NCBI RefSeq assembly: GCF_003334255.1
Contig: NZ_QOWU01000025.1
Source of the DNA: Escherichia coli
GTDB taxonomy: Bacteria; Pseudomonadota; Gammaproteobacteria; Enterobacterales; Enterobacteriaceae
Direction: 5' to 3' (one strand)
Length of the DNA: 64,000 nucleotides
Below the pieces are notes generated by a model. The model searched no databases, was not told the origin of the DNA, and saw only the letters and a program-made list of their open reading frames with translations. Below are positions 24,890 through 29,470 of the stretch, one piece after another (the first letter of the stretch is position 1; the number at the start of each line of letters is the position of its first letter). Position numbers and translations under genes: made by a program.

Positions 24890-27800
24890 TCAGAACGACC
24901 AGTTCACACCAGCTACCGCGTTCCACGGGGATTCCACACCGGCACTATGGCTATACCCCACCCCAAGATGCCCGCTTAACGTACTGCTGAATGAGGCTTT
25001 AATACCTGCCTGGTATATTCCACGTCTGCCCGACAAATAATTGACGAAATTACCGTCACTATTCACTTTCACCCGGTTATCATCGACAAATTCTTTGCGC
25101 ACAGCCGCCTTCAGCCACGGCTCAACTTCCATACCGTTCCCCAGACGCATGTTGTAACTCAGCGTTGCGCCCAGTTCACGATATATACTGCGGGTATCGA
25201 CTGATTTCGATTTCATGCCATTGGATAAATGATATTCGGGGTTATCAGCGGTGAACCCCGTTAACGATGCATACGGCGTCAGGTTCCAGTTACCATCGGT
25301 AAATCGCATCCCGGTTTCAATGTGACCGCCCAGCCCGTTGCTGTGGTAACTGCCATTGGCGGCTCCACCGCTGCTCATTTTACCTGCTACGTTACTTTTA
25401 AAACGGTTCAGCTTCACGACACCGTCCAGATAGAAACCACTTTCATGTTCCCAACTGGCATAGCCGCCCAGAGAATAACTGCCCACACTGCCATGTCCTC
25501 CGCGATCAAAACCGATATGTGAATGGGAATAGCCCATAAAAGCGCCTAGCGTGGTAATTCCTTCAGGAATATCATTACGGCTGTCGATCCCCACTGTCAT
25601 TCCGGTCAGCGTCTGCTCAAACCCGGCACCCGCATCGGTGGTGACATTATTACGGGTGTTATACGTCGCCCCCCAGACATTATTGTTGTGTGGACTCGCT
25701 TTCATTATGTTCAACCGCTCGCGAATACTGTTTAGCTCAGCATCAAATACCAACGGTAATGTTGCTGCCATATTGAGTACGGCTGCCGTAGAAGGCGTAA
25801 TGCGTTTCTCCGGAACGGGTGTCGGCGTTGGATCGGGAGTAGGGTCTGGTTTTGGATTTGGGTCTGGCTTTGGATCGGGTTTTGGGTCTGGCTTTGGATT
25901 TGGGATGGGGTCCGGGTTGGGTTTGACATCATTGGTCAGGTTCCAGTTGCTGTTGCCGTCACTTTTCAGGACATACTCATAGGTCCCAAGATCAACGAAA
26001 CCGCCGGTATTGCCCAGCGTAAACGAAGCATCCCCTCCCCCTGTTTTCACCAGCGTCATCGCGTCGTCAGACTGTGGGCTGACGCCGGTATCCTGAACAA
26101 AGATTTTAAAATTACCAGTGGCGTTGTTGTTGACGACCAGTTGATCGCCCCGGGAGCCTGCAACGTTGGTATGCAGGTAGAAATTACCGCTACCGGAAAG
26201 TTCATTGGTTGTCAGCGTATTGTAGATACCGTTAGTTGTGGCAGGCGCTGCTGTTTGTGCTGACAAATAAACATCACCGTCGTTGAGTAGCAAACTGTTT
26301 ACTCTATATTCGCAGTTGCTGGTACCTGCACAGGAATTATTGCTGTTAAGCCAGACACTGCCCCGGCTGGCAGCCGTCAGGTCGGCAAGCGTGGTATCGA
26401 CGCCATTTCCCAGAGTCAATGTCGCGCTATCGGTAATCCGGACCGCCCCTTCGAGTTTAACTGGCGTAACATTATCCCGTGGCGTCATTAACGACAGGCT
26501 TCCTGTCGCGCCACTGACCGATGCATCCGCCAGCGTACCTGCGTAGACGATTGCCGTACCGCCAGCGACCTGGAGATCTTCTGCCCGGGCCAGAGCCTGA
26601 AACTCATCTTTTGACCGCCCAAGGGTATATTGCCCGCCAGAGTTAACCTTTGTGGCGGAGTCCTGACCCAGGTTTTGCATTGCCCCACCCTTGCCAACCG
26701 TGGAGTCGCGAGCTTCGGTACCTGCTAATACCAATAAATTACCGCCATTTTCCAGCAACATATTGGTCGCTAAATTGCCGGAAATGGAAAAAGTACCGTA
26801 CTGGTGAGTACCGCTGATTTCAATACCGTTAGCCGTGCTCGTCTGGAGAGCGGCACCGCTGTTCTGGACGATATCTGTCGCTTTGCCATTATCGTTGACT
26901 GTCAGCGTACCGCCTTCATTGATCTTTGTTTTTATTGCCTCTCCGTTAGCTGAAACTGTTTGTATTCCGCCGTCGTTAATTGTTGTCTCATTCGCCACAC
27001 CCTCGACAATTTGTTCACCGCCGGTGAGCGTCGTGCCTGTCGCAGTGGCTTTTGTTTTGACGATCTCCCGTCCGCCCATATTGACCTGTGTTTTGTCAGA
27101 AGAGGTGTCTGACTCCACGGTTAACACGCCGCCATTTGCCAGCAGGATATTGTTCGCCGCACCCTGCTCGATGCTGAACGCGACGCCATCCGCGCGTGTT
27201 CCTGTGACCCGCGTCGCCCTGGTGGTTGCAACCAAAGCGCCCTGGCTACTCTGCTGTATCCCCGTTGCGCTGCCTTTCTCCCGCACATCGAGTGTGCCGC
27301 CGTCATTAAGCACCGAGTTTTCAGCCAGACCGCCCTCATTAACTACCTGTGAACCCCCATTAATAATGGAACCTTCCGCTGTCCCGTTTGCCATAATTTG
27401 TTGTAGGCCAGAGACGATATCGGTATTGATTGCCTTACCATAATTCTGAACGGTTTGCGTGCCACCATTGATGTGTGTTTTCTCTGTTGACCCACCATCA
27501 ACAATTTGTTCACCACTTTCGATATTTGCTTCAGTGGCTAAACCATATACCGTTTGCTTGCCACCTTTGATATTTGCTTTATCAGAAGTGGCACTGGCAT
27601 ATATTGTTTGGGTGCCAGCACTATTGAGTACAGTGCCAACATCTTTTCCATAAACATCCATTTTGCCGTTGGCATTAATAATCGTGTCAACTGCGCGGGA
27701 ACCAGTGACGACTGTTAATGAGCCAGCGTTTTCCAGCACTACATTTTTAGCTTCTGAATTCCTGATGTAGAAAGCATCACCATAACTGTTGGTTCCTTCG

Positions 27801-29470: not shown

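Follow-up and report, generated by a model that had tools for sequence, protein, structure and literature searches.

The ypjA/ehaD locus of an Escherichia coli genome: translation start, autotransporter architecture and a near-invariant 5′ leader

Introduction

In a 64,000-nucleotide stretch of an Escherichia coli genome (RefSeq assembly GCF_003334255.1, contig NZ_QOWU01000025.1; hereafter, the window), the longest mechanical open reading frame around 25–30 kb runs on the minus strand over 24890..29599, beginning at a GTG codon at 29599 and encoding 1569 amino acids. The locus raises the question of what this frame encodes, at which codon its translation begins and what its product does. An initial annotation described the product as a giant AIDA-I-type autotransporter with a mis-called start and unknown function, lying in an island-like context next to an invertase remnant. 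Here, these claims are examined against public annotation, domain models, structure prediction and allele comparison.

Results and Discussion

Gene identity and genomic context

The segment 24890..29470 of the minus strand is the E. coli ypjA gene. Over 5.7 kb, its DNA is 100% identical to that of many RefSeq E. coli genomes in which the gene is annotated as "ypjA: adhesin-like autotransporter YpjA/EhaD", and the encoded protein matches K-12 YpjA (b2647, 1526 aa) at 1524 of 1526 residues. Relative to the K-12 protein there are two substitutions (R273S and H538Y), whereas the two loci agree in start codon, protein length and neighboring genes (pinH, ypjB/C and ileY). EhaD is the O157:H7 name for ypjA, and the allele of strain 86-24, annotated alike, shows 98.5% identity over its 5′ region. 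We regard it as very probable that the product is YpjA/EhaD, an adhesin of the classical (type Va) autotransporter class with a beta-helix passenger, translated from the ATG at 29470. The gene is already catalogued as an E. coli adhesin gene, and both adhesin typing tools and reviews of autotransporters list it. The gene and its immediate flanks comprise the following features:

24890..29470, minus strand: coding sequence of ypjA/ehaD, 1526 codons followed by a stop at 24890-24892 (PGAP CDS coordinates are equal in the 100%-identical strain WEM25)
29878..30045, minus strand: pinH, a serine invertase/recombinase remnant (PGAP recombinase-family pseudogene; the K-12 pinH pseudogene lies at the equivalent position)
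24857..24880, no strand assigned: GC-rich hairpin with flanking A/T runs, AAAGCCCACAGATGTGGGCTTTTT, between ssrA and the ypjA stop codon

The island-like context and the adjacent invertase remnant proposed initially are both borne out. GC content drops to 0.31-0.39 at 30-35 kb, in a low-GC island bounded by ssrA and the tRNA gene ileY, and the gene order (ssrA, ypjA, pinH, ypjB/C, ileY) is that of K-12, placing ypjA at the position of its ortholog. In K-12, the 22-kb CP4-57 prophage separates ssrA and ypjA, whereas in this strain the prophage is absent and ypjA consequently lies only 160 nt from ssrA. Judging from its sequence, the intervening hairpin is likely a bidirectional terminator. The adjacent pinH also prompted consideration of an invertible switch of the Hin/Gin/Pin type; a search allowing up to three mismatches revealed no hix/gix-like 26-bp site, nor were there convincing flanking inverted repeats.

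Domain architecture

The 1526-residue protein can be divided, from N- to C-terminus, into the following segments:

29384..29470, minus strand: Sec signal peptide, aa 1-29 (MNRTSPYYCRRSVLSLLISALIYAPPGMA, cleavage before A), assigned by manual rules from the charge and hydropathy profile and the GMA↓A motif
26303..29383, minus strand: passenger, aa 30-1056, a predicted right-handed beta-helix of 18-19-residue rungs (AIDA repeats, periodicity, AF2, Foldseek)
25931..26302, minus strand: pertactin-type autochaperone that ends the passenger, aa 1057-1180 (Pfam Pertactin PF03212, E 5e-46)
25811..25921, minus strand: Pro-rich linker of the PDPKPNP type, predicted to be disordered, aa 1184-1220 (Pro-rich sequence over aa 1179-1222; model pLDDT <50)
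25703..25795, minus strand: alpha-helix, aa 1226-1256, that is predicted to traverse the pore of the barrel (AF2 helix, model residues 277-307)
24893..25681, minus strand: 12-strand outer-membrane beta-barrel translocator, aa 1264-1526 (PF03797, E 8e-47)

The passenger consists, as first described, of degenerate units rich in Gly (15.3%), Thr (12.5%) and Asn (9.0%), and when shifted against itself its sequence is most similar at offsets of 18-19 aa, where the score (0.02) exceeds that of all 100 shuffles (maximum -0.34). Pfam AIDA (PF16168) matches it about 16 times, and seven stretches score above the cutoff of the TIGR04415 ('O_hepto_targRPT') repeat. The AF2 model of the passenger is an all-beta solenoid with a pLDDT of 83, obtained from an approximate MAFFT alignment of repeat-containing proteins and with three low-confidence segments and a pTM of 0.47, as befits an elongated rod. 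The best Foldseek matches for this model are Ag43 (7koh, 7kob and 4kh3, with E from 1e-15 to 3e-17) and TibA (4q1q), in agreement with the beta-helix adhesin initially envisaged, and the autochaperone finds pertactin (1dab) and IgA1 protease as its PDB sequence matches. AF2, Foldseek and PF03212 hence concur on the beta-helical passenger with a C-terminal autochaperone that is found in type Va autotransporters. The early estimate for the length of the passenger was roughly 1000 aa, but its extent is nearer 1150 aa (aa 30-1180).

The Pro-rich linker and beta-barrel that were proposed to end the protein are likewise recovered. The linker, recognizable by sequence, differs in length in a paralog that carries an (NP)n expansion. 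The barrel scores 329 bits against a cutoff of 16 in TIGR01414, and the AF2 model of the C-terminal region (pLDDT 82) comprises a helix and 12 long strands. BrkA (3qq2) is the best Foldseek match for the barrel, with a target TM of 0.90, followed by EspP, Hbp, AIDA-I and NalP, while structural comparison matches the pore helix to those of pre-cleavage EspP and the AIDA-I transport unit. This C-terminal region thus displays the second hallmark of type Va systems, a 12-strand barrel preceded by a pore-spanning helix.

Relationship to characterized autotransporters and paralogs

Among characterized proteins, Ag43 (Flu/Cah) provides both the best structural match for the YpjA passenger and the best PDB sequence matches, and the two proteins share the same plan of signal peptide, beta-helix, autochaperone and barrel. 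The YpjA passenger is, however, about twice as long as that of Ag43, for which self-association is a known feature, and YpjA scores 349.7 bits in the Ag43/Cah model NF033177, well below its cutoff of 1200. With AIDA-I and TibA, YpjA has in common the repeat of roughly 19 residues (Pfam AIDA and the TIGR04415 stretches), and the YpjA models find structural counterparts in a TibA fragment (4q1q) and the AIDA-I transport unit (4mee), but in the model for AIDA-I proper (NF033176) YpjA reaches 261 bits, short of the cutoff of 1200. TIGR04415 indicates that YpjA contains repeats of the kind on which heptosyltransferases of the aah/tibC type act; no such heptosyltransferase gene adjoins ypjA, whose annotated neighbors are ssrA, a 39-aa reading frame, the pinH remnant and ypjCB.

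Two E. coli paralogs are also related to YpjA. YejO is 47-48% identical to YpjA over autochaperone, linker and barrel. Strain P15-25 has an intact gene at the ycgI locus, whose product and YpjA share 79% identity across 1032 aligned residues at the C-terminus and whose leader, Shine-Dalgarno sequence and signal peptide are the same as in ypjA. The passengers of YejO and the ycgI-locus paralog (864 and 1146 aa) are shorter than that of YpjA, and in most strains the ycgI copy has been reduced to the leader fused to a barrel remnant.

Secretion, function and expression

By analogy with characterized autotransporters, we infer a sequence of secretion steps for YpjA. Translation from ATG 29470 would yield a 1526-aa precursor directed through Sec by its 29-residue signal peptide, and the BAM complex would insert the C-terminal 12-strand barrel (aa about 1264-1526) into the outer membrane, its pore threaded by the helix and the Pro-rich linker. 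The passenger would then exit C-terminus first, with the pertactin-type autochaperone (aa 1057-1180) nucleating its folding, and the remaining roughly 1030 residues would stack into an extended right-handed beta-helix with 18-19 residues per rung, reaching outward from the cell. The resulting rod probably functions in adhesion and in contacts between cells or within biofilms, as do Ag43, AIDA-I and TibA, and by the same analogy YpjA may self-associate.

The ypjA gene is probably poorly expressed in the laboratory. The description of its function as unknown is outdated, since statements in reviews citing Roux 2005 and Wells 2008 credit YpjA/EhaD with promoting adhesion and biofilm formation. 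Reviews also list the O157:H7 ortholog EhaD as a biofilm factor, and one places YpjA phylogenetically beside the self-associating autotransporters (SAAT), while noting that the mechanism is not established and that no YpjA structure has been published.

It is nonetheless possible, if doubtful, that ypjA, though intact, is in effect a silent remnant of an ancient island, decaying across the species and making no natural contribution. At least 80% of the locus is present in only 2428 of 5426 complete genomes, several of the natural alleles sampled are frameshifted or truncated, the gene's neighbors are pseudogenes (pinH and ypjB/C) together with an IS3 fragment, and the ycgI-locus paralog has been deleted in most strains. 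The Roux phenotypes of 2005, moreover, are said to have come from forced expression. Against silence and decay stand the integrity of the reading frame over 4.6 kb, here and at 100% identity in many strains, the strong constraint on its leader (see below) and the listing of EhaD as a biofilm factor. The many frameshifted natural alleles do imply that the gene is dispensable and may be silent in many strains.

Translation start

The ATG at 29470 is in frame with the GTG at 29599 and lies 129 nt (43 codons) downstream of it. Two features lie between these two codons:

29480..29484, minus strand: Shine-Dalgarno sequence AGAGG, 9 nt before ATG 29470 (the GAGG part being 29483..29480)
29471..29599, minus strand: 43-codon in-frame extension of the longest reading frame, a putative untranslated 5′ leader

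Several lines of evidence favor ATG 29470. It is the sole candidate with a usable Shine-Dalgarno sequence, forming an anti-SD duplex of -5.8 kcal/mol at usable spacing, whereas the remaining three candidates offer either -1.9 kcal/mol or zero spacing. The N-terminus that follows has the layout of a Sec signal peptide, with a basic MNRTSPYYCRR segment (+3), the 13-residue hydrophobic core SVLSLLISALIYA and a PPGMA↓A cleavage region. RefSeq/PGAP (WP_001403181.1) and K-12 (NP_417134.2) both begin the 1526-aa protein at this codon, all annotated homologous proteins have MNRTS as their N-terminus, and PMC13101318 likewise works with a protein of 1526 aa whose signal peptide is 29 aa long. The initial preference for ATG 29470 accordingly stands, but the supposed miscall is limited to the mechanical reading-frame track, as the public annotations already use this start. 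From these sequence features we infer that translation starts at ATG 29470 and that the 43-codon extension is an untranslated leader.

Initiation further upstream, at GTG 29599 or ATG 29566, would make the 1569-aa product real and endow it with an extended two-part signal peptide. Some autotransporters do have long signal peptides (PMC2805444), and no stop codon interrupts the 43 upstream codons, whether here, in divergent alleles or in the intact paralog. The unusual conservation of the leader would be compatible with such a start, as would the substitutions in the extension (three synonymous and five non-synonymous), given their small numbers, and no allele combining a stop codon in the extension with an intact ypjA was found among those sampled. 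Both upstream codons, however, show anti-SD pairing of only -1.9 kcal/mol at 0-1 nt spacing, and the extension itself is basic (net charge +8), rich in Trp and Cys and devoid of a hydrophobic core, with no ESPR or other Pfam match when the 150 N-terminal residues of the 1569-aa form were scanned, weak AIDA matches appearing only downstream of it. Conservation of the extension spans every synonymous site, which points to constraint at the nucleotide rather than the protein level. When the extension was included in a protein search, it aligned solely to three gene calls whose frames simply continue through the leader, RefSeq and K-12 annotation leave it out, and YejO, whose N-terminus and signal peptide are collinear with those of YpjA, lacks any such extension. 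An upstream start is hence highly improbable. Just as remote is initiation three codons upstream at ATG 29479, which is in frame and would give MKFMNRTS and a signal peptide three residues longer, with one more n-region positive charge and compatible with Sec export, but which AGAGG abuts at a zero spacing unfavorable for initiation and at which no annotated homolog begins, all of them starting with MNRTS. ATG 29470 thus remains the preferred start.

A near-invariant 5′ leader

The sequence preceding ATG 29470 is set apart by its conservation and contains an annotated small reading frame:

29481..29640, minus strand: near-invariant 5′ leader block, just upstream of the ypjA ribosome-binding site and common to the ycgI-locus paralog near minE
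29535..29654, minus strand: 39-aa reading frame within the leader, hypothetical protein (PGAP WP_001120794.1)

Across six alleles, only two sites vary in the 170-nt block 29471-29640, compared with 24 of 140 upstream and 25 of 221 in the coding sequence. Within a 2.5-kb alignment, three consecutive 50-nt bins in the leader contain 0, 0 and 1 variable sites, and alleles that have the invariant leader differ at 11-17% of flanking sites. The leader is also about 95% identical to that of the paralogous ycgI locus near minE. The 39-aa reading frame has no family match, and the four differences between its body and that of the intact paralog all fall on second positions and are non-synonymous, so that protein-level constraint on this frame gains no support.

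This pattern of conservation allows the tentative suggestion that the segment of about 150 nt at 29481-29630 might be an undescribed cis-regulatory leader, acting as RNA or as protein-binding DNA and controlling YpjA-type autotransporters. An Rfam scan of 29300-30400 on both strands, with E up to 10, returned chance-level matches only, and predicted folding of the leader RNA showed no extra stability over shuffled sequences, with z = +0.83 for a 206-nt segment and z = -0.17 for one of 216 nt. A scan for sigma-70 promoters and terminators detected no promoter-like site on the minus strand upstream of ypjA. The 216-nt fold includes a 10-bp long-range helix pairing 29596-29605 with 29435-29444.

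An exact 20-mer scan against 100,044 species genomes yielded four matches on contigs assigned, by their titles alone, to non-Escherichia taxa, and matches in a plasmid collection came from E. coli records only, mostly chromosome-sized or bearing chromosomal gene annotations.

Conclusions

Reasoning from sequence features (Shine-Dalgarno sequence and signal peptide, repeat passenger, linker and barrel) reproduces the curated annotation of ypjA, and structure prediction agrees with it. As a discovery this carries little weight, since ypjA is catalogued and the proposed start is already in public annotation. The invariant leader common to ypjA and its ycgI-locus paralog, on the other hand, provides a small but concrete lead on ypjA expression.

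Identity and genomic context of ypjA

The giant autotransporter encoded in the window is a known gene, ypjA, which the initial annotation read correctly. A megablast search of 5,426 complete E. coli genomes matched the 5,701 bases of positions 24700-30400 in many strains without a mismatch (100% identity), and the annotation beneath this match is "ypjA: adhesin-like autotransporter YpjA/EhaD". The PGAP coding sequence of strain WEM25 maps to 24890..29470 on the minus strand and encodes 1526 aa (WP_001403181.1), and ypjA of K-12 MG1655 (b2647, NP_417134.2) likewise encodes 1526 aa; relative to it, the window protein carries two substitutions (R273S and H538Y). 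The locus is present at 80% coverage or more in 2428 of the 5426 genomes (about 45%), and several of the sampled alleles are frameshifted or truncated.

Features of the ypjA region in the window
24367-24729, ssrA (tmRNA)
24857-24880, hairpin with A/T runs on either side, between ssrA and ypjA
27857-28114 (+), ORF antisense to ypjA
29878-30045 (-), pinH, recombinase-family pseudogene
about 30046-30115 (-), IS3-transposase-like fragment (N-terminal part; weak, E 0.03)
30382-31755 (-), ypjB (263 aa) and ypjC (160 aa)
32506-32581 (-), tRNA

The gene order is K-12-like (recN, bamE, yfjF, ratA, smpB, ssrA, ypjA, pinH remnant, ypjB/ypjC, ileY), but the 22-kb CP4-57 prophage, which in K-12 occupies this tmRNA site between ssrA and ypjA, is absent from the window strain. 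Only 160 nt separate the end of ypjA from the ssrA 3' end (24729-24890), and the intervening hairpin looks like a candidate bidirectional terminator shared by both genes. On the other side, the invertase remnant noted in the initial annotation corresponds to pinH, with the IS3-like fragment directly upstream of it, and ypjB and ypjC are the halves of a single YpjCB-family gene (NF050179), split here as in K-12, which other strains have in one piece of about 484 aa. GC content falls to 0.31-0.42 over 30000-36000 (0.31-0.39 at 30-35 kb), a stretch covering ypjB/ypjC, ileY and ORFs at 33.5-35 kb, in which PGAP annotates one disrupted gene; GC-rich genes begin near 36 kb. The pinH remnant, the split ypjB/ypjC and the drop in GC therefore bear out the description of this context as island-like. 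The tRNA is typed as tRNA-Met (anticodon CAT) by ARAGORN and as tRNA-Ile (ileY, CAU) by RefSeq; we take ileY to be a lysidine-modified isoleucine tRNA, routinely mis-typed from its anticodon alone.

The antisense ORF corresponds to CDS87 ('in-ypjA', 85 aa), reported in K-12 by PIRT-Seq. The substitution underlying H538Y in ypjA (CAT to TAT) converts the ATG of CDS87 into ATA, so that in the window it could start only at an upstream TTG.

Translation start

The mechanical ORF list holds a 1569-aa ORF (24890..29599, minus strand) that opens at GTG 29599, with ATG 29470 lying in frame 43 codons downstream, as initially described. An AGAGG motif at 29484-29480 (-) precedes this ATG by 9 nt, containing the GAGG first noted there, and abuts a second in-frame ATG at 29479.

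In-frame start candidates of ypjA
ATG 29470 (-), anti-SD duplex -5.8 kcal/mol, tool-estimated spacing 8 nt (9 nt from the AGAGG motif)
ATG 29479 (-), anti-SD duplex -5.2 kcal/mol, tool-estimated spacing 0 nt
ATG 29566 (-), anti-SD duplex -1.9 kcal/mol, tool-estimated spacing 0 nt
GTG 29599 (-), anti-SD duplex -1.9 kcal/mol, tool-estimated spacing 1 nt

Of the four, ATG 29470 alone combines anti-Shine-Dalgarno pairing with a suitable spacing. The N-terminus that follows it (MNRTSPYYCRR, with a +3 charge, SVLSLLISALIYA, then PPGMA|A) is predicted to be a textbook Sec signal, and a 2026 surface-display paper gives YpjA a 29-aa signal peptide and a length of 1526 aa (PMC13101318). Furthermore, MNRTS forms the first residues of those database homologs that carry an N-terminus, and the N-terminus of the paralog YejO is collinear with that of YpjA (MHQSGSVSLCRSAISVLVATALYSPIALA|STVEYGETVDG). 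The intervening 43 residues include eight basic and one acidic residue and contain no hydrophobic core, and a Pfam scan of the first 150 aa of the 1569-aa version found no ESPR or other match in them. Initiation upstream, at GTG 29599 or ATG 29566, is highly improbable, although the comparative data do not by themselves decide against it: the frame of the extension is open in all alleles and in an intact paralog, and its changes comprise three synonymous and five non-synonymous substitutions. The nucleotide-level invariance of this segment, described below, is mild evidence against its being ordinary coding sequence. Translation thus very probably begins at ATG 29470. The "mis-called start" of the initial annotation holds for the longest-ORF track only, because the PGAP and K-12 coding sequences, both of 1526 aa, already use this ATG.

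Architecture and function of YpjA

Domain organization of YpjA (1526 aa)
aa 64-946, about 16 AIDA repeats (PF16168; Pfam)
aa 1057-1180, Pertactin domain (Pfam, E 5e-46)
aa 1179-1222, Pro-rich linker (sequence)
aa 1265-1504, Autotransporter beta-domain (Pfam, E 8e-47)

This organization agrees with the Pro-rich linker and terminal beta-barrel proposed initially. Among NCBIfam models, TIGR01414 (autotransporter barrel) scores 329 bits (cutoff 16) and TIGR04415 (strand-loop-strand repeat) 220 bits (cutoff 30), in seven stretches, while the Ag43, AIDA-I and BafA equivalog/exception models all fall far under their cutoffs. The passenger is indeed made of degenerate Gly/Thr/Asn-rich units (15.3%, 12.5% and 9.0%), and its self-similarity is highest at spacings of 18-19 residues and multiples thereof, where it exceeds 100 of 100 shuffles.

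Structure prediction, proposed in the initial annotation as a check, confirms at the level of models an architecture of beta-helix passenger and 12-strand barrel. The passenger model (mean pLDDT 83.3; aa 30-1000, from an alignment of 36 sequences) consists of short beta-strands throughout, with no helices, and its significant structural matches are Ag43 of three strains (7koh, 7ko9, 7kob, 4kh3) and TibA (4q1q), followed by other right-handed beta-helices. In the C-terminal model (mean pLDDT 82.4, pTM 0.72; aa 950-1526, from an alignment of 35 sequences), beta-rich rungs are followed by a disordered linker, a helix of 31 residues and 12 long strands; its top PDB match in Foldseek is the BrkA beta-domain (target TM 0.90), followed by EspP, Hbp, the AIDA-I transport unit, NalP and pertactin. 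A PDB sequence search was concordant (AidA-I family adhesin/Ag43, TibA, Vag8, BrkA, pertactin).

The initial statement that the function is unknown stands for the mechanism, which a 2022 phylogenetic review grouping YpjA with Ag43, AIDA-I and TibA describes as unknown, the structure being unpublished, but not for the biological role: YfaL, YpjA and YcgV take part in initial adhesion and biofilm formation (reviews citing Roux et al., 2005), and O157:H7 EhaD is a biofilm-associated autotransporter (reviews citing Wells et al., 2008). By analogy with type Va systems, the precursor would be exported through Sec, its barrel inserted with BAM assistance and its passenger translocated C-to-N, with folding nucleated by an autochaperone. 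We hypothesize that YpjA may self-associate.

An invariant leader upstream of ypjA

Just ahead of the ypjA ribosome-binding site lies a nearly invariant block of about 150-170 nt (29481-29640, -). An alignment of six ypjA alleles shows 2 variable sites among the 170 of the leader block at 29471-29640 (-), against 24 in the 140 nt upstream of it and 25 in the first 221 nt of the coding sequence, or 11-17% in these flanks. By Fisher's test, the block differs from the upstream segment with p = 3e-7 and from the coding sequence with p = 3e-5, values that are indicative only because the alleles are not independent samples. Across the 2.5-kb alignment, the 50-nt bins of 29481-29630 hold 0, 0 and 1 variable sites, and all others 1 to 23. 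In the whole collection, 2588 records match a 190-nt leader at 99% identity or more, and only 1088 match the surrounding 531-nt region at that level.

No Rfam family matched 29300-30400 on either strand, the predicted stability of the leader RNA fold was no better than that of shuffles, a search allowing up to 3 mismatches found no hix-like site, and no promoter consensus was found on the minus strand upstream of ypjA. An exact 20-mer scan of 100,044 species genomes and a search of a plasmid collection returned no informative copy outside Escherichia.

At 29535-29654 (-), within the leader, PGAP annotates a hypothetical protein of 39 aa (WP_001120794.1), which has no family match. Its coding status is doubtful, since all four differences from the paralog in the ORF body are second-position and non-synonymous, and its ATG is replaced by GTG or ATA in paralog copies. 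These copies belong to a second locus near minE (regions 1501-1778 of comparison locus L004 and 6001-9631 of L010), where a sequence 89-95% identical to the leader at 29500-29778 has ymgJ and the autotransporter remnant ycgI as neighbours. In the O139:H1 strain P15-25, a YpjA-like gene of 1146 aa is still intact at the ycgI locus and shares the leader, Shine-Dalgarno sequence and signal peptide of ypjA; ycgI hence appears, on sequence comparison, to be a deleted paralog in which the leader has been fused to a barrel remnant. Our best guess is that the leader block is a cis-regulatory element.
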